A stretch of DNA of 64,000 nucleotides from Bilabrum cf. latius (GCA_965178125.1 OZ237756.1:558001-622000), one strand, 5' to 3'; positions 5,049 to 62,096 are shown, counted from the first letter of the stretch. Made by a program: numbers and translations. The notes: generated from the sequence alone by a model not told the origin.

Positions 5049-5372
5049 CTGAAATAAATAATTCGTGCTTTGTTTGCCCTGCTATGCGAATTGCAAGTCC
5101 TCACAAACAGCCACGTTCGCTGAAGAACGTTCGAATCACCGTGATTCCTCGAGGCGGCCCTAAAGTCCCATATTTGGTGATCCAAATCACCATGGCGGTT
5201 CGATTTGCCGGCAGAGTATTCTTGCATGTAAGCTTTCACTGCCTTGCTCTTCCCATATGAACATGGCTGTACGCAGCAATGCACCATTGCAGTTGACTGT
5301 CGCAAGATATCCATCATTCTAGCTTCTTTGCACAACTTGCAGGCTGCTTTCGGCAGTGGTCTTGGGGCAATC

Positions 5373-16009: not shown

Positions 16010-16876
16010 ATGCCGTGCAAGCTATGCGGGCAATCAGGCCACAACCGACGGTCATGCCCATCTTCTATCACAAGTACATCCACTCAAGTGATCGCAATCG
16101 ATGAAAATGCCCCCATCCTCAGCAAAGACGGCCTGCTGCTAGCATCAGCTGCAGCCAGCGAACCTGCCCCCGTCGCAGGGACGAAGCGCGCCCGCAAGCC
16201 GACCACGTGCTCCATATGCAATCAACAAGGCCACAACAAGCGACCATGTCCCCGGAAGCGAGACATTGAAAACGGAATGCTCCCAGATGCGGCCGATCCG
16301 CCAGACGCGCCAACTGCAACTAGTGGCGCGACAGAATCGCCAGCTATATCAGGCATTGGAGGCCCATTGATCGACCTGTCGAGTGATTCGGATGGATCTC
16401 CAGTGGCAAAGAAGGCGCGATCTGGTGCGCTGGCCGAGCATGCCGCGGAGAGCAAGGCTGTTGCCGCTTTTTCGAGCAAGCGAGCACCAACGGTCGGGGA
16501 GGCAAAATGCACGTCGTCATTATCCGGTGCCGCTGCAGGTATGGCTATCGGCCTTAATGTGTCTAAGAAGTCCAAGGTGTGGCCGCATCCCAAGAAAAGG
16601 AGCAAGAAGCCAGGCAAGAAGGCCGGCACAGCGACCGCAGCAGAGCTTGCGACCAAGACCACTGGCACCGGCAACCAGCCCTCTGGCAAGGCCAAGGCGA
16701 GCAGCGCAAGCACGGCCACGCCCAAAGTCAAAAAGGCGATACAACTGCCTTCATTTATGATTGAACGTCCGCCGCCCTCCCCCAAGCATAAGCCCAAGCC
16801 AAAGCCCAAGCCAAAGAAGAGTGGATCGACGATTGGAAACTGGCGAAGGGGCCCACCAAGCTGGTCCCGATGGTGA
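16010..16876 (+). CDS. CCHC zinc-knuckle protein, short paralog of 19598-23221
   Basis: Two CxxCxxxGHxxxxC motifs. The first ~490 nt are nearly identical to 19598 onward. Confidence 0.55.
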   Translation: MPCKLCGQSGHNRRSCPSSITSTSTQVIAIDENAPILSKDGLLLASAAASEPAPVAGTKRARKPTTCSICNQQGHNKRPCPRKRDIENGMLPDAADPPDAPTATSGATESPAISGIGGPLIDLSSDSDGSPVAKKARSGALAEHAAESKAVAAFSSKRAPTVGEAKCTSSLSGAAAGMAIGLNVSKKSKVWPHPKKRSKKPGKKAGTATAAELATKTTGTGNQPSGKAKASSASTATPKVKKAIQLPSFMIERPPPSPKHKPKPKPKPKKSGSTIGNWRRGPPSWSRW

Positions 16877-19391: not shown

Positions 19392-19597
19392 ATGCTCTTA
19401 CTGGCGACCACAGCATAGCTACTATTGCACGGAGTACACAATTGGTTCCCATTAGTAGTATAGGCGCGAATAGTGATTCAAGGATAGCCAGACAGAATCG
19501 CCATGTAGATCTATAGACTACTTAATCCGGTATTTCCGGATTTGCCACCCCAACTCAAGAAGCCTCTTTTGTCCAGTACTCCCCACTCCTGCTATCG

Positions 19598-22500: not shown

Positions 22501-23221
22501 TGCCGATCAGACGTATTGCACTGCGCTGCAGATCCTCGCGTACCGAGCGGAGAAGTACGAGAGCAGGCACGGCATGCAGTTTCTCCTGGACGCGGGTGCC
22601 GATCCCAACCTGAAGCTGCCCGACGGCTCCACGCTCCTGCACCTGCTAGGCACGAGCAGGCCTGAATACGCCGGGGAAACGTTCCACAGGGGCGGCTGGA
22701 GGCCTCGGCACTACCCGCACAGCGATCCTGCGGAGAAATACGCCGAGTCCGCGCGACTTGCGGAACTTCTTCTGGAGCGCGGCGCCAACGGACGGACCTA
22801 CAACGGCAAGCGGGTGGGTCCGTTGCTCCACGCTGCAAAGCACGGAGTGGTTCACGTGGTGGCATGTCTGCTCTTCCATGGTGTGGACCCGCGGGCGCAG
22901 GCGTGGGGCCCTCGCCGGCCTTTGTACACGGAAAAGCAGCTGGTGGGCATCTACGATGATCCGCCGCAGCGGCAGTACGACATGCAGCAAGCCATGCAGC
23001 TGGCTGACAAGGGCAAGAGCAACAGGGAGATTCTGAAGAAGCTCTTTGAAGTGAACGAGAGGAACTGGATGTGGGGCGCGGGGAGGTATCGGCCCAAGTA
23101 CTTGGCGGCAGGGGGCAAGAGGGCGAAGGGGAAGGGTGGAAGCAAGGTGGGAGCCGATGCCGGGACCAAGGGGAAGGGAAAGGCAGAGGGGAAGGGGGCT
23201 GCGAGGGGCGGTGCGGTGTGA
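19598..23221 (+). CDS. CCHC zinc-knuckle and ankyrin-repeat protein (1207 aa)
   Basis: Three CxxCxxxGHxxxxC motifs, acidic tracts, and ankyrin motifs (LLDAGADPN...GSTLLH, LLERGAN, PLLHAAKHG). Confidence 0.8.
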   Translation: MPCKLCGQSGHNRRSCPSSSTSTSTQVIAIDENAPILSKDGLLLASAAASEPAPVAGTKRARKPTTCSICNQQGHNKRSCPRKRDIENGMLPDAADPPDAPTATSGATESPAMSGIGGPLIDLSSDSDGSPVVKKARSGALAEHAAESKAVASFSSKRAPTVGKADASSDGTAARNSGCITAASAADGSTVTKKSKVWPHPKKRSKKPGKKARTATAAELATKTTGSQPEASTTSTDSTAAASKTNTSNKSTARKFAMPLSALRRCGAAASKTTPSKSKATNTKKKNQRTKVDAAANDSDEDEAEPLAASGKALARRTGRKAPACSYCKQPGHTRRTCPTQLADKRRVRDRIRQEAKEAAKSDDIEKIKAIVSSGNGSPESMASHVYEEEIEESVKPHGPFRNHFCTYTSGSTGTGTEDPRLHPRLAYIAFLNDSEQVLRWALEAEETESGGRCRYSSQCQAGVLLQWAAYLGDESKLAMVLRALPGAGADAEAGAGAGADAGAGADAEPEAGADAEDGGRDMDGTGLVGAGAASGAGESVACSLRHKDDLQSALLVAAREHMSEVRDSEWKRVGEQSDGDEEEEDEEELDIDSADGEDEERDNDSVDSRSNGPSLSRACRPSPRSRELPWGDFPAVIRLLLRAGARADFDILKAGCQQPSGRALGSLLDVCRVPQEQLRALCLWGGGEEEQGAWERDGECPSKYDSWEHDNDDEDEDDDDDEDEDDEDEEIEGKGNKGSGAAGCDECVRSIHRALPTIAAVSRGPLKELLEKSGLVTSESSAEAPVSASGIMEGDDEEGDTAEKKRRRRRHQLELTLYLAASAGDAIACREMLKCGAAVPCTQAGREALLQAILWSKRSTGALLEVLLPALLEAERAGEQAGVERAGEQADAASSPSSPSSPAMPSSNSCSSSGGGGGEDEDEDGPPTGLRGWMTCRGNRRPYHDSRHSNPRYEGCSGSLLVEDHGSADQTYCTALQILAYRAEKYESRHGMQFLLDAGADPNLKLPDGSTLLHLLGTSRPEYAGETFHRGGWRPRHYPHSDPAEKYAESARLAELLLERGANGRTYNGKRVGPLLHAAKHGVVHVVACLLFHGVDPRAQAWGPRRPLYTEKQLVGIYDDPPQRQYDMQQAMQLADKGKSNREILKKLFEVNERNWMWGAGRYRPKYLAAGGKRAKGKGGSKVGADAGTKGKGKAEGKGAARGGAV

Positions 23222-28232: not shown

Positions 28233-31200
28233 TTCTACTCCGGGGGCGGATCACAGGTATACAGACAAGAGGAGTTGTCCATTTATGGCCAGTCCTCACC
28301 ACGGAAAGAAGCATGCATCAGCCCAATTCACGCAAAGTTGGGTCAAAATGGGCACTTAAACAATGTTGTGCTGGAGTTTGCATGGGAAAATGGTAAAGGC
28401 GGCGAAAAACCTGTCAGTGCGTGTGGCACAGGCATGGCCAGCCCGGCCGCCGTGTGCACTAGAACTTCTTTTTGAACGGTAGTCATCCGATCCAGATCCA
28501 CCGGACGAACTATTTGCGTTAGTAGTCCACCATTGAATGGATCCCCCCCCTTGGTAAGGCCAGATGCTCTGCGCATCAATCTGCCTTTAGTCATAGCCCG
28601 TTTTGCACAGGCACTTGCGGCATGGCTGCGGCTGGGCACAATCCAAGGAGGATCAAGCGAGCTGCTGACATGCGCGCGGCAGAAGGACCAACTGAAGACG
28701 TGTATGTCTAGGTACGGTGTGAATTGGGGCATGGGCTGGAGTGGACTGCAGGGGTGGGCAAATGCAGGGATGGGCAAATGCAGTGGTATTGCTTGCGATA
28801 CAATTGCAACAGAATCGGATAGATATGGACAGTCATATGTATGCTTGACCCTCTAAGCAACCACGCAGCATTTTTCCCCTAACGCGGTCTCTCCCACTGC
28901 CCGTGTCCCCCAGCTCTGCCCAGAGCCCCTGCAGCACCATCACGCAGTCTGTCTCTCCCACTGCTCGTGTCCCGCAGCTCTGCCCAGAGCCCCTGCAGCA
29001 CCATCACGCAGTCTGTCTCTCCCACTGCCCGTGTCCCCCAGCTCTGCCCAGAGCCCCTGCAGCACCATCACGCAGTCTGTCTCTCCCACTGCTCGTGTCC
29101 CCCAGCTCTGCCCAGAGCCCCTGGAGCACCATCACGCAGTCTGTCTCTCCCACTGCTCGTGTCCCCCAGCTCTGCCCAGAGCCCCTGCAGCACCATCACG
29201 CAGTCTGTCTCTCCCACTGCTCGTGTCCCCCAGCTCTGCCCAGAGCCCCTGCAGCACCATCACGCAGTCTGTCTCTCCCACTGCTCGTGTCCCCCAGCTC
29301 TGCCCCGAGCCCCTGCAGCACCATCACGCAGTCTGTCTCTCCCACTGCTCGTGTCCCCCAGCTCTGCCCCGAGCCCCTGCAGCACCATCACGCAGTCTGT
29401 CTCTCCCACTGCTCGTGTCCCCCAGCTCTGCCCCGAGCCCCTGCAGCACCATCACGCAGTCTGTCTCTCCCACTGCCCGTGTCCCCCAGCTCTGCCCAGA
29501 GCCCCTGCAGCACCATCACGCAGTCTGTCTCTCCCACTGCTCGTGTCCCCCAGCTCTGCCCAGAGCCCCTGCAGCACCATCACGCAGTCTGTCTCTCCCA
29601 CTGCTCGTGTCCCCCAGCTCTGCCCAGAGCCCCTGGAGCACCATCACGCAGTCTGTCTCTCCCACTGCTCGTGTCCCCCAGCTCTGCCCCGAGCCCCTGC
29701 AGCACCATCACGCAGTCTGTCTCTCCCACTGCCCGTGTCCCCCAGCTCTGCCCCGAGCCCCTGCAGCACCATCACGCAGTCTGTCTCTCCCACTGCCCGT
29801 GTCCCCCAGCTCTGCCCCGAGCCCCTGCAGCACCATCACGCAGTCTGTCTCTCCCACTGCTCGTGTCCCCCAGCTCTGCCCAGAGCCCCTGCAGCACCAT
29901 CACGCAGTCTGTCTCTCCCACTGCTCGTGTCCCCCAGCTCTGCCCCGAGCCCCTGCAGCACCATCACGCAGTCTGTCTCTCCCACTGCTCGTGTCCCCCA
30001 GCTCTGCCCCGAGCCCCTGCAGCACCATCACGCAGTCTGTCTCTCCCACTGCCCGTGTCCCCCAGCTCTGCCCAGAGTCCGTGGAGCACCATCAAGTGAT
30101 CATTCCCCTCCCATGTCCCCCAGCTCTGCCCAGAGCCCCTGCAGCACCATCACGCAGTCTGTCTCTCCCACTGCCCGTGTCCCCCAGCTCTGCCCCGAGC
30201 CCCTGCAGCACCATCACGCAGTCTGTCTCTCCCACTGCTCGTGTCCCCCAGCTCTGCCACGAGCCCCTGCAGCACCATCACGCAGTCTGTCTCTCCCACT
30301 GCTCGTGTCCCCCAGCTCTGCCCAGAGCCCCTGCAGCACCATCACGCAGTCTGTCTCTCCCACTGCTCGTGTCCCCCAGCTCTGCCCAGAGCCCCTGCAG
30401 CACCATCACGCAGTCTGTCTCTCCCACTGCTCGTGTCCCCCAGCTCTGCCCCGAGCCCCTGCAGCACCATCACGCAGTCTGTCTCTCCCACTGCTCGTGT
30501 CCCCCAGCTCTGCCCCAAGCCCCTGCAGCACCATCACGCAGTCTGTCTCTCCCACTGCCCGTGTCCCCCAGCTCTGCCCAGAGCCCCTGCAGCACCATCA
30601 CGCAGTCTGTCTCTCCCACTGCTCGTGTCCCCCAGCTCTGCCCCGAGCCCCTGCAGCACCATCACGCAGTCTGTCTCTCCCACTGCTCGTGTCCCCCAGC
30701 TCTGCCCCGAGCCCCTGCAGCACCATCACGCAGTCTGTCTCTCCCACTGCTCGTGTCCCCCAGCTCTGCCCCGAGCCCCTGCAGCACCATCACGCAGTCT
30801 GTCTCTCCCACTGCCCGTGTCCCCCAGCTCTGCCCCGAGCCCCTGCAGCACCATCACGCAGTCTGTCTCTCCCACTGCTCGTGTTCCCCAGCTCTGCCCC
30901 GAGCCCCTGCAGCACCATCACGCAGTCTGTCTCTCCCACTGCTCGTGTCCCCCAGCTCTGCCCCGAGCCCCTGCAGCACCATCACGCAGTCTGTCTCTCC
31001 CACTGCTCGTGTCCCCCAGCTCTGCCCCGAGCCCCTGCAGCACCATCACGCAGTCTGTCTCTCCCACTGCCCGTGTCCCCCAGCTCTGCCCCGAGCCCCT
31101 GCAGCACCATCACGCAGTCTGTCTCTCCCACTGCCCGTGTCCCCCAGCTCTGCCCAGAGCCCCTGGAGCACCATCACGCAGTCTGTCTCTCCCACTGCCC

Positions 31201-32811
31201 GTGTCCCCCAGCTCTGCCCCGAGCCCCTGCAGCACCATCACGCAGTCTGTCTCTCCCACTGCTCGTGTCCCCCAGCTCTGCCCAGAGCCCCTGCAGCACC
31301 ATCACGCAGTCTGTCTCTCCCACTGCTCGTGTCCCCCAGCTCTGCCCAGAGCCCCTGCAGCACCATCACGCAGTCTGTCTCTCCCACTGCTCGTGTCCCC
31401 CAGCTCTGCCCCGAGCCCCTGCAGCACCATCACGCAGTCTGTCTCTCCCACTGCTCGTGTCCCCCAGCTCTGCCCCGAGCCCCTGCAGCACCATCACGCA
31501 GTCTGTCTCTCCCACTGCTCGTGTCCCCCAGCTCTGCCCCGAGCCCCTGCAGCACCATCACGCAGTCTGTCTCTCCCACTGCTCGTGTCCCCCAGCTCTG
31601 CCCCGAGCCCCTGCAGCACCATCACGCAGTCTGTCTCTCCCACTGCCCGTGTTCCCCAGCTCTGCCCAGAGCCCCTGCAGCACCATCACGCAGTCTGTCT
31701 CTCCCACTGCTCGTGTCCCCCAGCTCTGCCCCGAGCCCCTGCAGCACCATCACGCAGTCTGTCTCTCCCACTGCCCGTGTCCCCCAGCTCTGCCCCGAGC
31801 CCCTGCAGCACCATCACGCAGTCTGTCTGGGCAGAGCTGGGGGACACGAGCAGTGGGAGAGACAGACTGCGTGATGGTGCTGCAGGGGCTCGGGGCAGAG
31901 CTGGGGGACACGAGCAGTGGGAGAGACAGACTGCGTGATGGTGCTGCAGGGGCTCTGGGCAGAGCTGGGGGACACGAGCAGTGGGAGAGACAGACTGCGT
32001 GATGGTGCTCCAGGGGCTCTGGGCAGAGCTGGGGGACACGAGCAGTGGGAGAGACAGACTGCGTGATGGTGCTGCAGGGGCTCTGGGCAGAGCTGGGGGA
32101 CACGAGCAGTGGGAGAGACCGCGTTAGGGGAAAAATGCTGCGTGGTTGCTTAGAGGGTCAAGCATACATATGACTGTCCATATCTATCCGATTCTGTTGC
32201 AATTGTATCGCAAGCAATACCACTGCATTTGCCCATCCCTGCATTTGCTCACCCCTGCAGCCCACTCCAGCCCATGCCCCAATTCACACCGTACCTAGAC
32301 ATTCACGTTTTCACTTTAAGTTGGTCCTTCTGCCGCGCGCATGTCAGCAGCTCGCTTGATCCTCCTTGGATTGTGCCCAGCCGCAGCCATGCCGCAAGTG
32401 CCTGTGCAAAACGGGCTATGACTAAAGGCTGATTGATGCGCTGAGCATCTGGCCTTACCAAGGGGGGGGATCCATTCAATGGTGGACTACTAACGCAAAT
32501 AGTTCGTCCGGTGGATCTGGATCGGATGACTACCGTTCAAAAAGAAGTTCTAGTGCACACGGCGGCCGGGCTGGCCATGCCTGTGCCACACGCACTGACA
32601 GGTTTTTCGCCGCCTTTACCATTTTCCCATGCAAACTCCAGCACAACATTGTTTAAGTGCCCATTTTGACCCAACTTTGCGTGAATTGGGCTGATGCATG
32701 CTTCTTTCCGTGGTGAGGACTGGCCATAAATGGACAACTCCTCTTGTCTGTATACCTGTGATCCGCCCCCGGAGTAGAAGTCTGTTTGACCGAGTGGTTA
32801 AGGTGACCGTT
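28201..32811. repeat. Large foldback: ~690-bp unique inverted arms enclosing head-to-head 64-bp satellite arrays
   Basis: 28201-28890 is the reverse complement of ~32115-32811 with a few substitutions and indels. The 64-bp unit runs forward 28885-31827 (~46 copies) and reverse 31828-32119 (~4.5 copies). Confidence 0.93.
32780..32811 (+). pseudogene. 5' fragment of tRNA-Leu, ending in the anticodon loop
   Basis: GTCTGTTTGACCGAGTGGTTAAGGTGACCGTT is identical to the 5' part of the tRNA at 28152-28232. Confidence 0.85.
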
Positions 32812-35061: not shown

Positions 35062-36633
35062 TATGAGGTCAATAATAACCACTTTACAACATCTTAAGCC
35101 GTAGTCCTTCATTATGTCCTTCACTTGAATATAATAATTTAATCGCTATTTATTCATATATCTACCTAATTTAATACCTTCGCGCCGTTAATGTCTATCT
35201 GTTAGACCTTCATTTGACTTAATCTGTTGAGTAAATCTCTAGCCTAAGTCTTAGGATATGCCCGCCCGAAATTGCGGAAATATATAGTCATTTAAGAATA
35301 TATGTTCGCAATTCTGGGCGCGTAGGTGTATTGAGTTTTATATTATGATTTGGTTTTAAGTATCAATTGACATTTACCACTTTAGAAAATAACTAAATAA
35401 ATACTTAAAGAGATTGACAGAAGTATTAAAGTCTTTTTAATACTTCCAATGAAAAATTTAAATTAATAAATAAAACTAAACTAATATCAACTTAATTTAT
35501 CTCTTTTTTTATTACTTGTCAATCTATACTTAAATAATTGAATATTTAAATATAACTAGAAGGAGATATTAATCACTTTATAAAGTCTTTTATATGTCAT
35601 CTCTTCAAAACTTCAAATATAAGGGTATCCCCTTAAAAATACATCCTTTAATCTATCGCCCGAAATTGCGGTAATATTATAGCTATTCAAGATATATTTC
35701 TGCAATTCTGGGCGCGTAGGTGTATTGATTTTTATTTTTCATAATTCTTTAAATATGTTTAAGTCCTTTGTTTGAGTATATGATATAAAGGAATACAAAA
35801 CGGGATAACTTAAAAATGACTCAATGAACTGGTTTATGTCAAGTGTATTACTTTGAAATGATTAATCACTAGATTAAATGGAAAATATAGGATAATTAAA
35901 TATGGTATAGTATAATACTAGCGCCCGAAATTGCGGTAATATATTAGGATATTAAGATATATTGTCGCAATTCTGGGCGCGTAGGTGTATTGAGTTTTAT
36001 ATTTTGTTAATTTTGACATAGTTATCTTATAGAGGTGTAATTTTGTAATAAAGATATTTCTAGTATGTGCTATATTAAATGTCCAGAAATGACGGCCCGA
36101 AATTGCGGAAATATATAAGTATTCTAGAAATTATGTCCGCAATTCTGGGCGCTTAGGTGTCTTCAATAATTAATAATCAACTACTTCTTTATTTTGATTA
36201 ATTTTTTTGACTTACCGTTCATTTTATTGACCACTTAACGGGATATCACAAAAAGACTTAACCACTTGACGAGATATTTTAAAATAACTAATAATAAATA
36301 TGACCGCCCCAAATTGTATCTCCAGATATGACCGCCCCAAATTGCGGAAATATATAAGTATCAAGAAAATTATGTTTGCAATTCTGGGCGCTCACCCGTA
36401 TTCAATTTTACATATTCACTAAGTCATACCACTTGAAGTGGTCCATTTGATCTTGTGTTCATATTTAGAATGTCCTTTAACTTGTATCAATGTATTGAGT
36501 ACTTCTTCTAACTAGTCCTTAACAAATGATTTTGTCTTATGATATGTCTTGGTAGTCTTCACCTATTTAATAACTAATTTACAAGTCTTACCGACAATAT
36601 ACTAAGTTAATAAATCTTGTATCATAATATATT

Positions 36634-43416: not shown

Positions 43417-44859
43417 TTAAAGACTTCTTAATCTTGAATCTAACCAAGATATTAGAGTATCAAGTCTCTTATTAAGACCTGAACCTTCACCAGTCTTACT
43501 TTCACTTGCTCCACTAGATGATTGACCTTGTGCTTCTTGTTCTTGTTCTTCCCGTTCTTGTGCTGCTCGTGCTGCTCTTGTTCTTGCTTCTTGACCTTTA
43601 CCAAGATCTTCACCTGCATCGCTTGCTACAAATTCTCCATCTGGTTGTCTTTCTAATAGTGTCCCTTCTGTCTCATCATCTAAAGGTTCATTACCTCTTG
43701 CTATCTATTCAGCAGCTTCATTCATTACATCACTTAATGCGGCTTCTCTTCGTAAGTCTGGATCTTTTTCCTTAGCTCGTCTAAGTCTTTCTTTAAGTGG
43801 AGTTCCTGACGGTTCTGCACGACTAAATGGGTTTGGTTGTCTTTTTCTTAGTGATAATTGTCTTTCAATATCTTTCTTTGCGTCATCAAACTTGATTCTA
43901 TTTAAATTTACAAATCTAGTTTTACTGTCAAGTCCCGATTGTCTTCCAGTCTTAATATCTTGAAATAAGCTCTATAAATCATAATACTACATATCATCTA
44001 TTGGCACACCATCATATTCATCACCTAATAGTGCTTTAAGTCTATCTTTTAGTACTGGTGCTTTAGATGTGGCTTTTGTTTTATAAATATCATTTATTGC
44101 TTCCATTCTTTTATTAAGTACATCTCTTTTTAGTTTAACTCGATCAGTTTGGCTTCGTAATCGTTCCAAAGCATAGCCTTTTGACTTTTTATCTCCTAAT
44201 CTTTCTAATAGAGGTACTATTTGTGTTCCTTTTGCTCTTTGTCTAACTTTTACAAGTCTTGATGCCATTGAATTAAGTTGAGCCTTAGAGAGACCATTTA
44301 AAGTTGAATCACTTACACCTCTCTCTTTAAGAAACTTCTTCAACTAGTCTACTGTTAAGTCATTCTCTAAGTCTTTGACATCTTTAGGTAAATTGTCTAT
44401 CTCTTCTGCTTCAATAAATAAGTTATTTAATGCGTCGTTAAGTTTTGACTCAGCTTTACCTTTTTGAAATAGAGTATTAGATGAGTTCATATATGGAATA
44501 TTCTATATCATCTTAGCAATAGCTTCAGCATCTTCATCAAGTAGTTCATTATCTTTAGCTAGTCTTACAACTTGATCTATATCTGCTACTTTATACTTTT
44601 TACCTTTCTTACTGTTATCTTTAACTCTTTTTAAAGTCCTTTTCATAAGATTTGCTATTCTTTTTAATTTTCTCTTTTCTTCTAATGGCATAAAGTCCTC
44701 TTCTAATTGAATCTTTTGTTTTCGTTTAGCTTCTCCTATAGCTGCTCTTATGGCTCTCTCTTCGTTTCTTACCTTTCGTCTTGCTTGACTTGTAGGGGCT
44801 CTACTTTCCACAAGTCCATCGAGTAAGTCTTCCAATACTGCTGTTCTTTTTTTAGACAT
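43417..44859 (-). CDS. Lys/Arg-rich helical protein (480 aa), possible virion core protein
   Basis: ORFs 44503 and 43987 and the downstream sequence are co-framed via TAGs; TAA at 43417-43419. Confidence 0.65.
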
Positions 44860-44898
44860 CGTATAATTATATTATGATAATAGATAATATTATTAAAT

Positions 44899-45342
44899 TT
44901 ACATACCATTTTCTTTTAATATTTTACTTGCTTCTCCTAGACTTACGCCATACTTCTTCATTACCGCACTCACTAATTTACCTCTTGCTTTAGCTTTTGG
45001 ATTAGGTTTCCTCTTACGCTTAGCCTTTCCAAGTCCTACAGTCTTAAGTGCAGCATCAAGAGGGACACCAACTTCAGGGGCTACAAACTTAAGACCTGTT
45101 CGTATTGCCTTTCCTACATTACTTTTAATACCTTTTTTAATTGTTCGCCCTACTTTCTTGAATTTACGACCTACTTTTTTAAAAAAGCGTCCAACTTTTG
45201 AACCACCTTGAACACCATTCATTTGATAGTCTTCAAATAATTCAAGTAGTTTTTGCTTAAATTCGTCTTTTAAATTGTTGACTTTGGCATTAGAGGGTGA
45301 TTTACCTAGTTGCTATAGTCTTTGTCTTATGAAATCGTCCAT
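44899..45342 (-). CDS. Basic virophage core-like protein (147 aa)
   Basis: GG dipeptide followed by the amphipathic basic segment FFKKVGRKFKKVG, and C-terminal RGKLVSAVMKKYGVSLGEASK. One TAG. Confidence 0.65.
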
Positions 45343-45627
45343 TATAATAAAGAACTATAATATTTCTTATTAATATATGGTTAAATTAACAAAGTAGTAG
45401 CTAAAGTATTATTCACGATTTGATGATCCTAACGCCGGATGGGGTTCGGTGTTGATGCCAGAGTGGGAGCGCGTGAACGTCTCGTTGGGTTCCGATGGCG
45501 GTTGCGACCGGGAAGGTGCGACCAAGCCAACGGATTGCTTGCGATGACGCGCATACCCTCTCTGTGTTCAGGAGAGGGGCGGAGATTGGGTAATTTTTGA
45601 AGAAAGTTCCTGCTCCGTTCATTTAAC

Positions 45628-48600
45628 ATGAACGGCGCCGGTAGCCATCGGATCGACCCGGCGGCGCGGGCACCTGGAAGCGCCAGGGTGATCGCCGCAG
45701 CTGCAGTGTTCGCTCGCGCGGTAGGCCAACCTGCGGTCACGTTGGCCGATTTAGCTACTCGATATGGTATGAATGATGCTGTGTTCTCGGATTTCATTGC
45801 TCGTCTCAACGTGCAGCGCGACACCATGGCGCCTCGAGATCTTGATCTTCAACGTGCACACGATGCGGGGTTCCTGTGCTATTTGCTCGACAGGTACTCA
45901 TCAAAGCAGTCCTTCACGGCATCACGGTCCATTAATGCTGTCAAGAGCACCGCTCTCGCCAAGTTCGTGTCAAATGGGACGCTAACGACTCTCGGTGCAC
46001 GGCTGCTTCTGCCGGCATCGCCGAGCTCCCCTCGACGGCAACAGCCTGAGCGACTCGCAGGACAAGTACGTCTTCATCATGTTCAGCAATCTCCAGAGGC
46101 TCCTTCTTCAATCGAGTCTCCATGGTCCCTGAGTTCACTACCGACGGGCCGGCGGACAGCTCCTCTTAGCGGACGGCATCGGCCACCAGGACGCCTCGAC
46201 TTCGGCGCCGCCATCCATGCTTCACCTGGACGCGACCGAACGGCGTAGAGTGCCACCAGGACAGGCCGCGGAATTTCGCCCTTGCGGGCGCGGCCAGGCT
46301 CTTCGACGACGCGGCAGGCCCCGCTCGCGCGCGGCGGGCGGGCCCACCTGCACGAGTCCCCGAACCGCGGGCCCCCGGGGACAGCAGCAGATACCCAGCG
46401 CAGCGCCCAGCCCAACTTCTCAACGTCTTCACCCCCGCGGCACCAACCTCCACCTGCCTCGAGCATGATCCCCGGTAGACCAGGCACTCGGGACTTCGGC
46501 GATCCGACAGTGCTCGCGGAGGCGCTCAGCAGTGCAGCATCACGGTCAACGGGCCCGGCAGGCCCTCAGCTTCTTCTTCCTCGTGTGTCTCCGGCTTACG
46601 ACTCCCCCGGCGTGACTCCGGGCACCAGCCGCTAGCTTGACGCGGTCTGGGGCCGCCTTCCTGGGGATCTCCAACGGGCAGTGTTGCACTCCACGACGCT
46701 GCGGGGAACGGCCGACCCAGCGACAATTCTGCATCTACGCCTGTTTGCGCTGTGGCACAGCATTCCGACTCTGCGCCAGGAAGAGCTGCTGTCGCGCCTC
46801 TCCGCCCACGTGGAATTACAATGGTACTTCTCGCACCGACTGGCAGCCTCGATGCACTCATCCCCGCCACCGGTCGACGCTACACCCGCTCATCAGCCAC
46901 CCCGTGAACCTCCTGTGTCATCTTCTGCCTCACCGCAGCCTGCGTCTTCAATTGACCCAGTTTCACCGGGCGCAGGCACGGCAGTGGACTCCGCGGCCGT
47001 TCGCTCGCAACCAGTGGAGATTTTGTAGCGTGAGGCCTCTGCACCTTCAATCGCTGCAATTCGAATGCAGAATTGGTTTTCTGATGATTTCTTGGCAACG
47101 TTGACCTCGATCTTTCGCCAATCCGCGTTCATGCCGCGGTTTTGCTAGGCTGACGCGCTTCATTTGGACGCTAGCGGCCGCGATTTCGCTGCAGAACTGG
47201 CCCGTGCTCTGTTTGGTCAGGCCGTGACGAGAGCCAAGATTGAATCGGCTATTTTCTCGTTCACGAGCCGGCTTCATGCAGCTCTGCCGATGAGCAATGC
47301 TAGTTTTGGGAAGTTCGATGCGTCCAACTCGGAGTCGTCTGCTGCAGGCGGACGAGAAAAGTAGGTGCCATCTAGCGAGTTACTATGCACTATTTACTCG
47401 GCTATTTCCTTTGCTTTAGGCTGTGTGCTCGTGCGCGCTGCTTGCGTGCATTCGGCGGCGTCCTTGCCGTCCTGGTTGCCGCAGGGCAGCAGCTCGTGGT
47501 CGTGTCCAGCATCACTAGTGCCCGATTGGAAAACCCTGGGGCAGGTTCGCAATGATTTTCTTCGTTTGGTTAGTGCTTCCGGGGCATCATCTGCATCGGC
47601 GTCCCGACTAGAGGTGGTGTTTGCCGCTGTGTGTGTGATACCACGCGGAAGTTCAGCCTTTGAGATGCTCTCCTCCCATGCTTGGCGCCATACAGGCGAA
47701 CGCTGTGACGTTGAGATTCGTGACCTTGTTGGGAATGAGATTCCTTCGTGCTCTTCTGGCGACTGCATGCGTCTCCTACAATTGCTGCATCCGTGGGCCA
47801 CTGAGGCATGCAGATCAGGCGAACCTGGCCTCGTGCGCGGACTGCTACAGGGAGTCCAGGCTGACATGCAGGCGCCGTCCCGTCGAGCAGCACTGTCCCG
47901 TCACTTCGACCCCCGCGGGGGCAGTGGAGGCCGGGGCAGTGGAGGCGGGGGCAGTGGAGGCTCCAGGCGCAGTGGGGGCGACAGCGACCAGCCCAGTACC
48001 GATCGTGGCGGAGGTCGACACCGTCGAGGCCGTGGACGTGGCGGTGCAGGCCAGCAAGGTGGCCAGCACCAGCGTGCGGACCGGCAGGACGGGGGTTCCA
48101 CCAGGAAGTCCAAGGAGCCTTCACCTGACCCTCCCCCACGAGGTACGTCACGTCAGAGCCAGCCCAGCACTCCAACACCAACACTGCCGCAGGGGCGTAC
48201 GCAGACTACCACCACATCGGACGCGTGTGCTGCTTCCACACCACCTGTCACGTCAACGCCCGCGCTTCACCCAGTCCTGGTGGCCCTAGCGCGCCCTAAG
48301 CGACCGCAGCGGCCGCCCACGGCGTCATCCACGAGGCTGCCAGGTAGGACGGACATCTCTCCAGCATTCGTTGACTGGGCATATCCAGCTCCGGATCCAA
48401 GCCATGAGTGGGCAGGGACGACAGCACCCTCCGTAGAGGACTTCATCCAGCGAAAGGACGATCACCAGCGTACCAGAGACTGTCCCGGCGAATTCGTGGA
48501 GGCTCCAGCTGCGACGTGGGACCGTGAGCGGATCCACCTGAAGGTTCACGAAGACCCGCTGGCATTCACGCCACGCAAGTACTTCGACAAGGTGCCTCGC

Positions 48601-51387
48601 TAGACTGCAACCCTGCGGACTCGGCGGGAGGTTCTGTTTGGCGGCCGCACACCGAGGAAGGCCCCGTCCCTTGCCGAGTTCAAAGCCCTCCCACGAGTCG
48701 AGCGTGTACTGGCAGCACTGAACTATGGTTGCCCCCTAGCCATCGTGGACGAGGTGCCCAAAGAGCACGATCTAGACTACAAGGACCGTAAGCTGTCTCC
48801 GGAAGAAAAGTGGGAGATCGCCTGCGAGATCGGGCGCTCCATGCGGGCTGGCGAGCGTGACTTCGTGTCACCCAAAGATTTCGACACAGCCCGGGCCCGG
48901 CCGCTGGTGATCCCCAAGAAGGACTCGACAAAGCTACGGTTCCTTCAGGACTCCTCACTCAAGGTGAACGGCCAGCGTACCGGTCTGAACAAGGCCATCG
49001 ACTACAGTGCAGCCACGCCTGTGCAGCAGACGAGCAGCATGGACGTGCTGCGCTCGGCAGCCGCAGCAGTTCGATCCTGCCCCAAGCGTGCCAGCGGATA
49101 CGTCGTCGACATTTCCTCGTACTTTCGGGTCCTGCCGGTGGCAGTGGAGGATCTCCAATACAACCTGATCAAGCTGCCCGACGGGCGCATCGTGCAAGAC
49201 TTCAGGCTCTCTATGGGCAGCTCATCATCTCCCGCGTTCGCAACTACGATCAGTTCGGCTTTGGCCCAAGCCCTCGAGGAGCAGTCCATTGGCAGGGCCA
49301 TGCGACCCGGACGGAGACACAAGCAGAAGCAACGACGCCGGCAGCAGCAGCACGCCAACGCCCAATCCAGCACGACGGACCAGGCGCCCCAGGCGAACTC
49401 GTCAGCAACGTCCACCCCGCCTGCCGCTAGCACGACAACGGGACAGGTCAAGACGGCCCAAGACTAGTCCCGCCATTGGTAGGTCGAAAATGAGGTGTTT
49501 GTAGATGACTTTGCCTGCCTCGGCGGAGATCACGAAGTCGATGCATGGGCAATTCGAGCCATGGGGCAGCTGGACTCCACAAACTTCCCCGTCAGCATCT
49601 CGAAAGCATTGAAGCAAGGGGCCCCAGCCCCGGTGTTCGAGTACTTGGGCCTCACCTACGACTTGATCAAACACGAGGTGCGGTGCCCTAAGGACAAGGC
49701 CACCGACGTCCTGCGCAGACTGCACGAGGCACTCACGACGAAGGGGATGCTGCTGTCTAGCTTTGAGACCTTGGTCGGCAAGTTGTCCTTCCTGTCGGGC
49801 GCACTTTATGGTATGCGCGGTGCTCTACGTCCCCTGTATGACGCCAAGGGCTGGGCCCTTCACAAGTAGGCCAGCCGGTCACGACCAGGTGAGGTGTGGG
49901 TCCCCACCTCCTTCGTGTCCAAGGGTGGCTTCACAGTTGGGGAAATCCTCGAGGGATTCCAGGTGGCTATCCAGCGCAAAGGCGGGCGCAGTTTTCCGAT
50001 GCGGGGCACCATTGACTGTCCCATCATTCGCACTGATGCGTCGGTGACAGGCTACGGCGCCGAGCTACTTCTCCACGACACGGACGGAAACATCACATCG
50101 CACACCGGCATCCACGGCACTTGGCCGCATCGCCTAGAGGCGAAGGATGTAGCGGCGGCAGAACTTGCAACATGTTTGTTGGCACTGGCGCATTGGCGAC
50201 AGCACCTGCGTGGACGTGTGGTGCGTTTGTGGTGTGATAATGATGCTTCCGTGTAGCTGATACGCTACGGCAGACCCAAGAGCCACATCATGGCAGCCTT
50301 ACTTCGCCCTATCTTCGTACTGCAGACAACGCAAGATGTGCAGATTCACGTGAAACACATTCCTGGCGAGGACAACATCGTTGCGGACGCTTTGAGCCGC
50401 GGCTCACAGGAGGCATACACGCACCTGGACGCGGTGTATCAGGTCGACTGTCCCACGCCGATCTGGAGGACCTTGTACAAGCACGACCATTTCACGCTGG
50501 TGGCCACTCTGGACTCAGTGGGTTGCGCACGGCGTGGGGGCACTTCGACAACTTCCTCACGTGGTACGACATCGACCGCAGCTTCATGGACGGGCATCTT
50601 CCAGCAGCTCGCAGACTCTTCGCGTTCAGGCTCAATGCAGCGCTCTCGAGATTTGCAGTCTTCTTAGGGGAATGTTCGCCTCTCAGTGGCGGCACCATCG
50701 CTACATACACCAGAAATGCCTAGCGAGTCGTCATCGAGTCCACAGGAGCGTGCGGCGTCCCACGGTCAAGCTAGCTCGACAGCATCCTCCGGTACTACCA
50801 CAAAGCATCGCCATCGGCGCACCCGTGGCGTCGATCTTCAGCCCCACTCCGCGCAATCCGACGGTGTTTCTCGACAGCCGGTTGCAGCACAACAGAGTAG
50901 GCTGCTCGGGCAGCTGTCTGTCTCTGCTTCTGTGGGGGCCTCCGGCTGGGAGAGCTCGTCGGTGCGTCCAGACGACAAGCCGGCCTCCAATGGCAGCAAG
51001 TGCAGTTCATCACGCGAGACGGACGCATCCATGGTGTTGCCATCCGCCTGGGCCTCCACAAAGCCGACGGTCCAGCCAAGTTCTCCATCCAAGCCGCAGA
51101 GCCCATCGCAGTCCATTGCAGAGCCGGACGATGGGCAGTCACAGGCAGCAGGTTCTGCGGCGTGCGAGCCTTCGTGGCGTGGGCAGCAGCGAGCCACGCC
51201 CCAACTGCAGGCGCAGACGAAGACTACGCCCGGTAGCTGGCGCTCAGCTGCCCCACGTCAGGGCCAGTCTTCGTGGCGAACACGAAGCCGATCGTCAAGG
51301 CGCAGGTCGTACGGGCGCTCCGCAGCTTCTGCTCACGAGAAGTTGCAGGAGCGGTGCACGGACATTCCATCCGCATCGCGGCAGTGA
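45628..51387 (+). CDS. Ngaro gag-like/RT/RNase H polyprotein (1919 aa under TAG=Gln)
   Basis: One frame broken only by 11 TAGs. RT motifs IPKKDSTKLRFLQD, DISSYF, LSMGSSSSP, FVDD, YLG. RNase H motifs TDAS, AEL, CDN, HIPGEDNIVADALSR. Confidence 0.88.
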
Positions 51388-51581
51388 TGTGTTTGGACCG
51401 TGCTGGGGTCGCCTTCGAGGTCATTAGGCGATTCGGCAGATGGAAGTCGGCATCTGCATGCGAGGTGTACTTGCGGGGCGTCAGGGAAGGCTTGCCTCCT
51501 CTGGAGCTCGGCGGCAGGAGCCTCGATTTGAACAGGCCAGTGTGGGTGCTGGCCAGCGCGCTGCGGCTGAACTTGGAGTGA
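50523..51581 (+). CDS. Ngaro tyrosine recombinase, overlapping the polyprotein in another frame; start unresolved
   Basis: LRLGEL, HKAD, GHSIRIAA, GRWKS...Y (R-K-HxxR-W-Y set). Four TAGs; TGA stop. Confidence 0.88.
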
Positions 51582-53049
51582 GCCACACAGCCGCAGCGTA
51601 CAAGACATGGCGGTAAGATTTGGCGGAGTAGTGCACGTGCTCTTCCCAGCCCCGGTCAGTCCGGTCAAGGGTAGCGCACAGGCACAGCTTTGTCAGGTCT
51701 TGCCATGTCTGATTGTTAACGAGACTAGGTTGCGCGTACACTCTGGCATCATGATCCTAACGCCGGATGGGGTTCGGTGTTGATGCCAGAGTGGGAGCGC
51801 GTGAACGTCTCGTTGGGTTCCGATGGCGGTTGCGACCGGGAAGGTGCGACCAAGCCAACGGATTGCTTGCGATGACGCGCATACCCTCTCTGTGTTCAGG
51901 AGAGGGGCGGAGATTGGGTAATTTTTGCCCACCCTCCCAACCCCCTCCTCCTCGGCGGAGTAGTGCACGTGCTCTTCCCAGCCCCGGTCAGTCCGGTCAA
52001 GGGTAGCGCACAGGCACAGCTTTGTCAGGTCTTGCCATGTCTGATTGTTAACGAGACTAGGTTGCGCGTACACTCTGGCATCATAATAAGATATTCAAGT
52101 CTTTTAAAATAAATAGAAGTGATATTTATTTAAATGGTTCATATTCATTTACTCATAATATGCTTTCACTTTGGGCTGGAGACATAGACCTATACTCTCC
52201 CGTTAAATTGTCTGATGTCAATAGTGTTATAAATGAATTAAAGACCTTAAGAGGTAGTAGATTAATACATATTTATAACGTTGAATATGATGATAATGGC
52301 GTCTCTTTAGATACATTTCTTGATACTAATAGACCTAAAATATTAAAATCTTTAAAATAGTAGAATAATCCTATGATATTCGTTGAAAGTTGGGTCTATA
52401 CTGGATATATTGAAGAGGTTAGTATATTATATGATATTGGAGGTAAGATATTGAAAATGAAGCCTAAACAAGTAGCAGATAGGATGATAGATGACATAAA
52501 AGACTTACAAAAAGAACGAAAATATTTCAAGATATTAAAAAGACTAGATGTTATATATGACGAATTAGGGCAAAAGAAGAAACAGGAAGAGATTGAACAA
52601 CTTATAAAGAATCCCGATGTAGGCTTTCTTTACTTGACTATTACAAGATTAAAAAGTTTATTACTTCCAACAGTTCCATTTAAATTAAAAAATAGAGTTA
52701 TTGATAGACTTAAGAATGATGTACGTAAATTAGGACTTATTAAACCAGTATATCAATACTTTAATACGTTCAATAGTAAAGATGTAAGTATTATAATTAA
52801 ATATTTAGAAGACTAGCTCAATAAAAGGGTCGTTAAATTAGTTTCACATAATTGAATACACCTAAACGCCCAGAATTGCAGACATAATTTTCTTGATACT
52901 TATATATTTCCGCAATTTGGGGCGCCCTATATTGTGAGATTTTCATTAGATTGACCCGAAAATGTAAAACCTCTAACAGCCTACGCGCCCAGAATTGCAC
53001 AAATATATCTTAAATAGCTATAATATTACCGCAATTTGGGGCGGTCGTC

Positions 53050-56678: not shown

Positions 56679-58565
56679 ATGTCTGATATGGATAATGTAC
56701 CTGTAGCAGCACAAAGCAAAGTCGTAGATGACGTCTCAGAACTACCAGTAACTCAAATAGCTGACGAAAAACTCAACTTTGTGGGTGATAGTCAAGCTAT
56801 TACTCTAGGAACTACCCTTGGATACTCTTCCAAGTTTCAAAATCACTACGAACCAGATGGTGGTAACTCTAGCGCAACTAATGCATTTAGAAGTAATTAT
56901 ACTTTCGTAGTGCCATCAAATCAAGGAATGACTGACAGTAATCCCCGTCTAAGAGTTTCATTTGACGTATACATCTATGATAGTTAGAACAATGGAGCAG
57001 TAGCTCAAACTGATATCGTCAATAAGGTAGCCCCTTCTACATTTATGGTAAATTCAATGATCACAAGTTCCACAGTTAAAATGGGAGACTTATCTCGTAG
57101 TTCATCACCTTATCAATTAGTCAATTTAATAGCTAGAAGTCTTGACCGTGCCACTCTAGCACAAATAAGTCCTGTCTTTTAGGCTGATAACACTTGGGAA
57201 TTTAATACTGCCGCAAATGGTCTTGCTAAGTCTGTCCTTCAATGGGGTGTAAATGATGATAGTATTATGGAAGCTCGCGGTCCTGGTAAGAATTACCGCG
57301 CAACACTTGAAAAAGTGGATGCTAATACTCCAATACCTAATAATAATGTAACACCAACTCAAGACTATGTCAAATTACATATTGAAATCTCTGAAGCACT
57401 TCTTGCACGTCCTTTCCAATATATGATGGGTGGTAATGCTAGACCTTTTGTTGATCATCCACAATGAAATGTTAATTTACAAATGAGAAATAACTTAATT
57501 GATAAGATGTTTAATACTTCAAGTGATTGGAATGGAGACTATGCTTTTGCTTTATCCGATTGCTAGATCCATTTTGATGTCTTTACTTATAATACTCATC
57601 TTAACTTCTTGAAGAAAGTACCTAAACAAATATTCTACAACTCTGTTGACTTTGAACTACATGAAGAGCCTAAACTTGATAATCCTATCACTACTAAAGG
57701 TGTCCATACTTTTAATAATTATCAACTTTAGACTTGCCCTTCTTGGTTTGCTGTGTGCTTAGTTGATTCTCAATATGGAGAAGCTAGTGGTACACCTCAT
57801 AGAACACTTGCCATTAACAATATTAAAGTACAACTTAGGTCTTAGGGTTCTATTTTAGGAGAACTTACACAAGACGATATCTTTAGACTTAGTGAAAGAA
57901 ATGGATCAAATAGTGAGTATGCTTCTTTTACTAACTTAGATGTAACTGTAGGAGGTGCTTCTAAAGTATACGGATCTAATGGCTGGCTCTTATTTAGACT
58001 TAGTGATTTAAATACTCCTGAAACTATTCAAAGCAACAGTGCTGACCCTATTAGTATTCGTGTTCAAGTAGCCAATGACGAACCCCCAACCGCTGCTATG
58101 TCTCAAGGATATAAAGCTCAATTATTCTGTGCCTATGACAAGATTATCGTGAATACTAGAGGTGCCGCTATTGAATGGCGTGAAGATAGTGCTTCTGTTG
58201 ACCCTGAGAAAGTGGCTAAACCTTCTAATTATACATTTTCTAATATGAACTACTCTAAGAACGTATTAGGTGGAAGACGTCGTAAAGTGATGCAATTCTT
58301 TAAGAGAGCCTTTAACAAAGCTAAAGACTTAGGACGTAAAGTGGTAGACTTTGGAAAGAAAGCTAAAGCTAAATTTGATAAAGTGAAACCAGCTCTTCGT
58401 AAAGCAAGACAAGCAGTAAGTGAATACTTACCCGATGAAGTGAATGACTTAGCTGAACGTGTTGGAGCAGGTCTTTTAACTAGTGGTGGAAGTCTTTTGA
58501 CCAGTGGAGGTAAGAAATTAACTAAGGCTCAACTTATGAAACTTAGAAAGTAGCTCAATATGTGA
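56679..58565 (+). CDS. Major capsid protein (629 codons) with one internal TGA at 57465-57467
   Basis: Long beta-rich frame after the penton gene. C-terminal LGG|RRRK basic tail with repeated TSGG, as in processed virophage MCPs. Confidence 0.82.
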
Positions 58566-60254: not shown

Positions 60255-62096
60255 ATGTCAGATAATTTAGACTTCCATTTAATTAAACAAGTTGATGATA
60301 TATGTTTCACTGGTGTTGAATTCTATTAGGGATATCGAATAACTCAAGGTGAACAGCTTAAACAACTTAATTACTTATTCGTAGATAACAAAAAGGATAT
60401 TGATAAGTTTGTATCTATTTCATTTGTAAAAGAAGCAGATAAGGATGAGTTTGAGCTATTACTGGTTAATGAAAATGGAAAATTAGAAGACGACACAGAT
60501 ATATTAATGCTAACGCCGAATGGGGTTCGGGGTTGATGTGGCGATGCGTTCGAGACTCGAACACAGGCTCCGGTCTACCAACGCGAGGTTGCAACCGCCA
60601 GTGCGACCAGCAGCTTGCGAGGCATTCCCTCGTCTCCTTCCTTAGGGAAGGGGGCGGGGCAGCGCGGCAGTGGCCGTTCCGGCTCATGCCGTTGTTTTGT
60701 TTAGTATTTATGTTCGGTTTGGTGCTCACACGGGTAGTGCTTAACGCCGTGTCAACTATCGCGCGTGTCCATGTGGGTCCGTTCGGCCTACATCGTGCAT
60801 CCATCCTCGGCCTACTTGGCGCTCCAGTGGATCCGAACCAATATTTACTTCGATGTGATCCATCTTTCTCGGCACATCGATGGGACTTCGGTCCGTTGGG
60901 CTCGGCTGCTGCTTGCGCCACGGTCTCCCGGGTGTGTGCTCGCCGATGGCATTTTCGCGCGATCTCTGCGTCCCTCCCTTTCGTACTTGTTCCTACGCAC
61001 GGCCATGCATGTAGAAACATATTCAAATGGTTCGATCTTACGGTTTTCCGACGACCCAGCCTTTCCGTTGGCGAGGCGCGCTCCGCTTTTCCGGTCGCAC
61101 CTCGAAAGCAACCACTTTCGGCCAGATCAGCCATCGTACCAGGATACAGCACGATTTGCACCTATCGAGTGACTGATCATTTGAATTGTGCAGGGTGGGC
61201 ACGTAGTCAGCTTGGACTCCATCGTCCTCTGGCTGCCGACGACAGCAGGCTCGGTGAGCCTTCGTCATCGTCCAGACAACCCTGCAGCTCGCACCAGGCG
61301 TGCGTGCAGGAGGTCGAAGCGAGCAGCGCGGTGTGGCGCAGCTCGTAGACGGAGGCCGGCCTGGAGCCTGGTCGGTTGACGCAGCATCAGTGGTGGGCTG
61401 GTGCTGTGTCTTGCGCGGGTGCCGGAGCTTGGCCACGGTGGCCTGCTGCTCCCTGCGCCCCACGCGCAGTTCCTCCCGCTCCGGCGGATGAGTCAGCAGT
61501 GGCACGTTGCCACCGGCTGACGACGACAGCAGGCTCGGTGAGCCTTCGTCATCGTCCAGAAAACCCTGCAGCTCGCACCAGGCGTGCGTGCAGGAGGTCG
61601 AAGCGAGCAGCGCGGTGTGGCGCAGCTCGTAGACGGAGGCCGGCCTGGAGCCTGGTCGGTTGACGCAGCATCAGTGGTGGGCTGGTGCTGTGTCTTTGCG
61701 CGGGTGCCGGAGCTTGGCCACGATGGCCTGCTGCTCCCTGCGCCCCACGCGCAGTTCCTCCCGCTCCGGCGGATGAGTCAGCAGTGGCACGTTGCCACCG
61801 GCTGACGACGACAGCAGGCTCGGTGAGCCTTCGTCATCGTCCAGAAAACCCTGCAGCTCGCACCAGGCGTGCGTGCAGGAGGTCGAAACATCATTAAAAC
61901 AGAGAGAGACCTTATTAAGTACTTGAAAGAAATAGATTTAAACAAAAAAGACTATTCAAATGATGATGTTATGTTGTCAACATTTCCAATTATAATGATG
62001 AGCATACGAGATCTAGTAATCAATAGCAATATTGGTTCAATTGAGAGTATCAAAAAAGGTGATACAGATCAATTTGACCACTTGAAAGATAACTAA
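60255..62096 (+). pseudogene. Hypothetical viral gene (150 aa) interrupted by a GC-rich insert; join(60255..60503,61893..62096)
   Basis: Removing the insert gives in-frame ...EDDTDI|IKTERDLIKY... Confidence 0.7.
60504..61892 (+). mobile_element. Non-autonomous Ngaro-related element with ~2.3 internal 284-bp tandem repeats (61238-61888)
   Basis: Starts TTAATGCTAACGCCGAATGGGGTTCGG, compared with ATGATCCTAACGCCGGATGGGGTTCGG in the Ngaro A repeat. Ends in CATC like Ngaro B2. No RT or YR. Confidence 0.78.

Follow-up and report, generated by a model that had tools for sequence, protein, structure and literature searches.

A probable Ngaro-type retrotransposon nested in an endogenous virophage of Bilabrum cf. 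latius, in which TAG is read as a sense codon

We analysed a stretch of 64,000 nt of the Bilabrum cf. latius assembly (GCA_965178125.1 OZ237756.1:558001-622000; hereafter the window, from the start of which all positions are counted), which contains a GC-rich mobile element inserted in an endogenous virophage. The GC content is about 61% in the left part of the window (1-35 kb) and 28-36% in a block that extends from about 35 kb to the window end; this AT-rich block is broken by two GC-rich islands, at 45.4-52.1 kb and at 60.5-61.9 kb. The first island is an element of 6.66 kb (45423-52082; 61% GC, 58-66% across 46-52 kb). It is very likely an intact Ngaro-type retrotransposon (DIRS order) that transposed recently and belongs to a small, divergent family, the class being assigned by architecture.

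Structure and coding capacity of the element

The element has the layout A1-[ORFs]-B1-A2-26-nt linker-B2 (ORF, open reading frame), that is, its repeats are split direct repeats. The following features were delimited.

45423-45599, plus strand: A1 repeat (5' split direct repeat), identical to A2 (177/177 nt), starting with the crossover dinucleotide AT
45628-51387, plus strand: long ORF with the gag-positioned region, reverse transcriptase (RT), RNase H and a Ser-rich tail; 1919 codons from ATG 45628 to TGA 51385-7, with 11 in-frame TAG
45628-48600, plus strand: gag-positioned N-terminal region, about 990 codons, Gly/Arg-rich boxes at 47917-48051; coding by frame statistics
48898-49791, plus strand: RT core, motifs YVVDISSYF, MGSSSSPA and VFVDDFA, aligned with relatives that carry RVT_1
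50023-50400, plus strand: RNase H, motifs TDAS, AAAELAT, CDN and DNIVADALSR; Pfam RVT_3 at E = 3.3e-5 (24.2 bits, cutoff 21.6)
50448-51581, plus strand: tyrosine recombinase (YR) ORF, in the -1 frame relative to the long frame; 4 TAG, stop TGA 51579-81, start set at CTG 50448
50521-51387, plus strand: Ser-rich tail of the long frame over the YR gene, inside a 991-nt stretch (50394-51384) without TGA in any frame
51622-51752, plus strand: B1 repeat, identical to B2 (131/131 nt)
51718-51814, no strand assigned: imperfect palindrome spanning the B1-A2 junction, an inverted repeat with 34-nt arms and a 29-nt spacer
51751-51927, plus strand: A2 repeat, identical to A1
51928-51953: C-rich linker of 26 nt between A2 and B2
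51954-52084, plus strand: B2 repeat (3' end), identical to B1, ending with the crossover dinucleotide AT

The first-pass annotation of this DNA, made from the sequence alone, had proposed an intact Ngaro with identical A and B repeat pairs. The analysis supports both parts of this proposal: the repeat pairs are identical over 177 and 131 nt, and the architecture is that of an intact Ngaro-type tyrosine-recombinase retrotransposon, with split repeats, a gag-position/RT/RNase H frame followed by YR, and no methyltransferase. BLAST aligned B1 and B2 over 129/129 nt up to position 52082, and the next two letters, AT, are also common to both copies; the repeat-finder figure for this pair (134 nt at 99%) extends 3 nt into the flank. 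AT at 51751-2 both closes B1 and opens A2, and AT is also present at the outer ends of the element (45423-4 and 52083-4). The palindrome that spans the B1-A2 junction had a folding energy of -33.1 kcal/mol as single-stranded DNA (z = -7.1), and because it folds so strongly the junction is a plausible candidate recombination site. No copy of the 26-nt linker follows A1. Its minus strand is polypurine, and the linker could serve as a tract for priming.

The long frame contains no TAA and no internal TGA across its 1919 codons. Over 45601-50520 the other two forward frames hold 23 and 39 TGA and TAA codons per 1639 codons, so that the long open frame is not due to chance (P(0) <= 1e-10). With the standard code, the element would be broken into pieces of at most 412 codons. 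All RT motifs (D of motif A, MG..SP, FVDD) and RNase H motifs (TDAS, E, CDN, NxxADxLSR) are present in an alignment with relatives, which are homologous database proteins designated here by P-numbers, and the RT carries a low-complexity insert of about 70 residues between motifs B and C. An HMMER search with the RT-RNase H part returned 2699 proteins at E <= 1e-3 and seven at E <= 1e-30. Three of these seven (P0005, P0006 and P0007) are 99-100% identical fragments of the same element, and the more distant matches carry RVT_1 and RT_RNaseH; a tblastn search of phage sequences with the same part gave no match.

The last 250 or so codons of the gag-positioned region, including the Gly/Arg-rich box, are conserved and in frame with the RT in P0004 and P0015. 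As these two proteins have the upstream region and the RT in one frame, the single-frame arrangement is a family trait, and the single gag-RT-RNase H frame announced in the first pass was thus found both in the element, with TAG as sense, and in its relatives. Only a Ser-rich tail of 290 residues, overlapping YR, follows RNase H, which leaves no room for a methyltransferase, and no further Pfam family (methyltransferase, rve or protease) was detected at E <= 0.01 on the 1928-residue frame.

Three relatives of the YR were found, at 49-64% identity, and the residues R, HK, HxxR, W and Y are invariant in the four aligned sequences. The end of the YR frame at its TGA coincides with the C-terminus of the homolog P0010. 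In the Protein Atlas, the homolog P0008 matched only unnamed clusters. Comparison of YR with PDB sequences gave nothing below E = 0.18, and an alignment scan of viral contigs found no relative among 185 pattern matches. In a scan of metagenome contigs, ten loci were recovered, all distant (24-39% identity), with an RNase H match beside YR at one of the ten.

In the YR frame, which is open from 50244, conserved N-terminal sequence precedes the first ATG (50586), so the remark in the first pass that the YR gene has no upstream ATG was correct. Conservation reaches upstream to about 50448, and the initiator Met of P0008 aligns with CTG 50448; around 50448-50520 both frames are conserved, so that this segment is truly dual-coding. 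The missing ATG would be explained if YR were the C-terminus of a long polyprotein, made by -1 ribosomal frameshifting or by splicing within 50244-50450. YR does lie in the -1 frame, which is open for 204 nt upstream of its conserved part, and 19 GT..AG pairs would join the long and YR frames. We nevertheless consider such a polyprotein rather unlikely: no canonical X_XXY_YYZ heptamer is found in 50200-50700, the only two in the whole ORF being far upstream; relatives own an ATG, as judged from P0008; and candidate introns ending before 50451 would delete RNase H motifs. Furthermore, when Logan contigs of four public runs from four studies (X1, X2, X4 and X5) were aligned to 44600-52900, none of the 19 pairs was backed by a contig joint, and contigs of all four runs crossed 50200-50600 without a joint, these contigs not being established as RNA. 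YR is therefore most likely made separately, from a start that would lie near CTG 50448 or ATG 50586, and not by canonical -1 frameshifting.

It had also been pointed out in the first pass that the 1919-codon frame continues for about 860 nt over the YR gene. This run is real, but it is not specific to the long frame, since all three forward frames are open there (no TGA or TAA in any of them over 50521-51384) and the tail is Ser-rich and poorly conserved. The longest TGA-free gap, which extends over most of the recombinase gene, measures 991 nt, compared with a mean of 378 nt (standard deviation 94) in a first-order Markov simulation, in which gaps of at least 864 nt were obtained in 0.2% of 500 runs. 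This excess over expectation, together with the Ser-rich extensions past RNase H in the relatives P0011 and P0028, would be accounted for if the stretch were a case of real multiple coding, with the Ser-rich tail or the third frame giving a functional overprinted product. We find this improbable, as the tail is low in complexity (SPGRAT fraction 0.62-0.67) and its likeness to the tails of relatives may be a by-product of YR conservation. In the overlap the GC content at third codon positions is highest in the YR frame (0.69, against 0.62 in the long-frame tail and 0.58 in the third frame). In addition, the gap test was post hoc, and another TGA-free run, of 1.8 kb, sits in a host tandem repeat. 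On the antisense strand, a frame of 310 codons (50492-51424) is open when TAG is read through.

TAG as a sense codon

The first-pass description of the element as recoded was upheld in that TAG is read as sense, and has to be narrowed in that the change is limited to TAG, TAA and TGA still acting as stops in the virophage. The long frame and the YR frame of the element together contain 14-15 in-frame TAG (11 + 4) and no TAA, and end at TGA. Over 45601-50520, we counted 10 TAG and no TGA in frame, and 22 TAG (12 and 10) and 55 TGA out of frame (Fisher p = 1.6e-5). TAG is thus equally common in and out of frame while TGA is excluded from the frame, which fits a sense codon and not decay. In the 20 ORFs of the virophage (36634-63999) there are 69 TAG, 125 CAA and 6 CAG, with no internal TAA, and the stops counted (n = 19) are 14 TAA and 5 TGA, excluding a TGA that splits the capsid gene (see below). 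In-frame TAG is also seen in long open frames of the host DNA: the open frame 5232-10502 has 1757 codons with 14 in-frame TAG and no TAA or TGA, its only match being a weak TrAA12-like one.

TAG-only recoding is deduced from the spread of TAG through gene bodies and the confinement of TAA to gene ends. When TAG alone is changed, about 20 compact ORFs emerge from the AT-rich block. Translation table 6, in which TAA and TAG both encode Gln, was rejected: TAA is found only between genes and at ORF ends, and with this table ORFs overrun into the intergenic motif. A tRNA and Rfam scan of the window returned only a tRNA-Leu(CAA), and no suppressor tRNA or anticodon CUA.

Alignments suggest that TAG most likely encodes Gln. 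TAG 48601 aligns with Gln in all three relatives that cover the position (P0004, P0012 and P0015), and at the TAG of the YR motif SSQLD two of two relatives have Gln; Gln is found in one of four relatives at TAG 49867, and in one of three at the YR RQLAL position. In the virophage integrase, the TAG of the motif NPqSNG aligns with the Gln of NPQS in PDB 4pa1_A.

An element cut by the standard code into short pieces might also be a dead copy in which the TAGs are nonsense mutations, and public gene callers do split the near-identical copies P0005, P0006 and P0007 at TAGs. This is almost certainly not the case. Decay is at odds with the exclusion of TGA and TAA from a frame that holds ten TAG, with the identity of the repeats and the polymorphism of the insertion (see below), with the alignment of TAG to conserved Gln, and with the presence of in-frame TAG in virophage genes and long host open frames; moreover, no variant was found at any TAG codon among the differences listed for the four runs. 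In-frame TAG is common to the Ngaro-type element, the virophage and long host open frames, which means that none of the three has come recently from a host with the standard code.

Insertion site, virophage context and competing explanations

The AT-rich block and the features that adjoin the insertion are as follows.

35000-64000, no strand assigned: endogenous mavirus-like virophage, extending past the window end; about 31% GC; rve and chromo integrase, ATPase, protease, penton, split major capsid protein (MCP), helicase-like ORF
44899-45342, minus strand: virophage ORF left of the insertion, the element lying 80 nt upstream of its ATG
52160-52855, plus strand: virophage ORF right of the insertion, beginning 75 nt past the element
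60507-61894, plus strand: second GC-rich insert, 1386 nt plus the shared AT, interrupting a virophage ORF at an AT

The element occupies a divergent intergenic spacer of the virophage. One contig in each of two runs, X4 (1634 nt) and X5 (1844 nt), carries the empty site and joins 45422 to 52083, skipping exactly 6660 nt; two letters fit either side. The insertion is therefore polymorphic and lacks a target duplication, with the crossover at AT. These contigs bear out the two claims of the first pass on the target site, namely that there is no duplication and that its AT matches the B1-A2 junction. They also agree with the recent insertion proposed there, for which the identity of the repeat pairs is the other argument, reverse transcription, as modelled in the literature, predicting identical pairs in a fresh insertion (PMC6681497). 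X1 and X2 contain the element (0.97 and 0.95 of sampled words) and give no cover of the flanks of this virophage, from which it follows that the element does not depend on this virophage; copies with other flanks were seen in all four runs.

The identification of the surrounding block as a virophage, also made in the first pass, was supported by the Pfam match of the MCP to MCP_V20_C (31.7 bits, cutoff 27), by a set of morphogenesis genes and by an rve integrase (rve 32.8 bits, cutoff 32.6; Chromo 30.3 bits, cutoff 25.1). The gene order is ATPase (FtsK-like, with sub-threshold matches to AAA_10 and AAA_22), cysteine protease (weak Peptidase_C57 match), an ORF at the penton position, and MCP. 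The MCP matched PDB 6g45_A/6g43_A, annotated as 'putative major capsid protein', with E = 3e-7 (C half) and E = 5e-5 (N half); we take 6g45 and 6g43 to be mavirus entries. A scan of viral contigs with the C half found no relative. The MCP gene (56679-58565) is split by a single in-frame TGA (57465-57467) into ORFs of 262 and 360 codons in the same frame, which match residues 52-214 and 318-521 of one PDB capsid chain. This TGA may be a premature stop that leaves the virophage copy capsid-defective, an error of sequencing or assembly, or a site of readthrough.

The second GC-rich insert has no RT or YR and is non-coding; it contains a tandem repeat of about 284 nt in 2.3 copies. Over its first 32 nt it shares 90.6% identity with the start of the A repeat, and its last letters are CATC-AT. 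When it was removed in silico, the ORF that starts at 60255 continued in frame to TAA 62095-7. From these termini, the 1.39-kb insert is most likely a non-autonomous passenger that would be moved by the same recombinase.

For a Ngaro-type element of this structure, a full-length RNA would be translated into one gag-position/RT/RNase H protein; reverse transcription via the split repeats would build a circular DNA, or an equivalent, with one palindromic B-A junction; and the recombinase would cross this junction with the target at a very short overlap, which is AT in both insertions of the window. The lack of target duplication would result from a crossover at such a short overlap. AT dinucleotides have a frequency of 0.1145 in the virophage and 0.0419 in the host part, and this 2.7-fold higher density would be a simple, partial reason for landing in virophage DNA.

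Several observations weigh against the reading of the element as an intact Ngaro. On the protein side, the gag-positioned region has no Pfam domain match and no CCHC knuckle, and its single-sequence AlphaFold model is unusable (mean pLDDT 38.5), so that 'gag' is a positional label only; Pfam RVT_1 gives no match on the RT of the window, whose identification thus depends on homologs and motifs; and the sole Pfam match of YR, to Phage_integrase, reaches 21.8 bits, under the curated cutoff of 27.1. The full-length YR has neither an ATG nor a canonical slippery heptamer. At four TAG positions other than those described above, relatives carry Ala, Pro, Phe, Leu or Glu and not Gln. Among the contigs listed, none shows the filled junction at this virophage site, and single-contig loose ends suggest that other copies start 1-3 nt off the AT; the crossover overlap may be looser than AT. 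Finally, at 50827 all four runs have T where the window has G, which gives Trp in the window and Leu in the runs. Leu is also the residue of P0008 and P0009, the two homologs that align at this position, and the window copy may thus carry a private change in YR. The other position at which all four runs differ from the window, 48612 (A in the runs, C in the window), is synonymous.

With only empty-site contigs spanning the site, and none of those listed bridging flank and element, the nesting could be an assembly artefact, a repeated GC-rich element having been misplaced into a virophage copy that is truly empty. This is very improbable: the borders of the insertion coincide exactly with the ends of a complete split-repeat element and with the same AT as at the internal junction, the runs compared need not include the source of the window, and a different element with the same termini lies 8 kb away, also at an AT, its removal restoring an ORF. 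The element might instead belong to another lineage of split-repeat tyrosine-recombinase retrotransposons (PAT-like, VIPER-like or an unnamed clade), tied to the Ngaros of Cafeteria only by a convergence of habit. PAT-like elements carry a methyltransferase, and VIPER has YR before RT; the present element has no methyltransferase domain and no room for one, and its genes are ordered RT/RNase H then YR, which makes another lineage unlikely. In favour of it, the family is very isolated, with its seven matches out of 2699 at E <= 1e-30, three of them from the same element, and Pfam barely detects its RT and YR; PAT-like and VIPER-like elements, moreover, have split repeats as well (PMC6681497).

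Other observations were made around the insertion. The sequence CGCCCAGAATTGCGGAAATAT is matched 31 times between 35263 and 62174 (at most 3 mismatches; chance expectation 0), in most cases in inverted pairs separated by about 37 nt. These matches sit between virophage genes, nine of them being clustered in 35263-36353, and could represent a hairpin that acts as a common promoter or terminator, or else material of terminal repeats. The left part of the window encodes ordinary eukaryotic genes (BUD31, PhyH, ankyrin and zinc-knuckle proteins). The host ORFs 15866-16873 and 19526-23218 represent a local partial duplication: they share a near-identical N-terminal part with CCHC zinc knuckles, which is followed by ankyrin repeats in the longer one. 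The host part also has a tandem array of about 3 kb (28847-32000), with a strong C-over-G skew and no TGA, TAG or TAA, which translates as about 16 copies of a Cys/Pro/Ser-rich unit of about 62 residues.

Relation to known systems and significance

Ngaros nested in endogenous virophages of Cafeteria burkhardae, which the first pass had cited as established, are indeed described by Hackl et al. (2021, PMC8547959): GC-rich elements of about 6 kb, arranged A1-[ORFs]-B1A2B2, are found there in about one in four endogenous mavirus-like elements, with an intergenic bias (9 of 20 sites intergenic). The element studied here resembles them as a GC-rich element of similar size within an AT-rich endogenous virophage of a GC-rich host, and in its repeat arrangement, its RT, RNase H and YR with HxxR and Tyr, and its position in an intergenic virophage spacer. 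It differs from the published description by its very divergent proteins, by a gag-positioned region fused in frame to RT/RNase H, where three ORFs are reported in Cafeteria, by a YR that lacks an upstream ATG and overlaps the long frame, and by the 26-nt linker between A2 and B2. It also contains 15 in-frame TAG because its host reads TAG as sense; the account of the Cafeteria elements mentions no variant code (PMC8547959).

Split direct repeats, a YR in place of a DDE integrase, and the absence of methyltransferase and protease are shared with Ngaro-like elements in general, in which the YR and RT/RNase H ORFs often overlap or are frameshifted (PMC6681497, PMC3783388). The use of a missing methyltransferase to separate Ngaro from DIRS1-like and PAT-like elements is taken partly from PMC3783388 and partly from general knowledge. 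Compared with the Ngaro-like elements described in these two sources, the present one has very divergent proteins, the RT insert between motifs B and C, and a long N-terminal region (about 990 codons) with Gly/Arg-rich boxes.

Mobile elements nested in endogenous virophages or polinton-like viruses (PLVs) are also described in Halocafeteria seosinensis, a related bicosoecid, where they are MULE and LINE elements and the authors state that Ngaro is absent (bioRxiv 10.64898/2026.07.28.741278); transposable elements nested in virophages or PLVs are likewise reported in the work on Streblomastix (PMC10120064). In the literature on Ngaro in virophages, we found no host other than Cafeteria burkhardae, and searches on Ngaro and virophage, on virophage and stop-codon reassignment or alternative code, and on bicosoecid and UAG revealed no Ngaro in a recoded virophage.

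The endogenous viral elements of Streblomastix strix, in which TAA and TAG encode Gln, similarly use the reassigned stops of their host (Bellas et al., 2023, PMC10120064). In contrast with the description of these elements, here TAG alone is reassigned, it has nearly replaced CAG in the virophage (69 versus 6), and a nested retrotransposon shares the code. Nuclear codes in which UAG alone is sense and UAA is still a stop, as here, are reported for Iotanema spirale, Rhizaria sp. exLh and phyllopharyngean ciliates (PMC5304391, PMC11687900). The near-swap of CAG for TAG in the virophage is a clear example of a virus adapting to the code of its host, and in-frame TAG provides a natural marker of residence.

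The nesting of Ngaros in endogenous virophages may be a recurrent three-level parasitism that also takes place in a TAG-reassigned host. A recombinase crossing over at AT on the palindromic B-A junction, together with a Gly/Arg-rich Gag fused to RT, would then steer insertion into AT-rich virophage DNA, and the same recombinase would mobilise the 1.39-kb passenger as a fourth level. We propose this model tentatively, as a possibility that we doubt more than we believe, the recurrence of the association resting on one insertion and one related small element. If it is true, a virophage could act as a vehicle for a retrotransposon.

In conclusion, finding the Ngaro-in-virophage habit a second time, and in a host where TAG is sense, would show that it is not an accident of one species. 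With its filled/empty polymorphism, its exact crossover of 2 nt, the palindrome at its junction and its putative non-autonomous partner, the element offers a tractable system for the choice of target by a eukaryotic tyrosine-recombinase retrotransposon.

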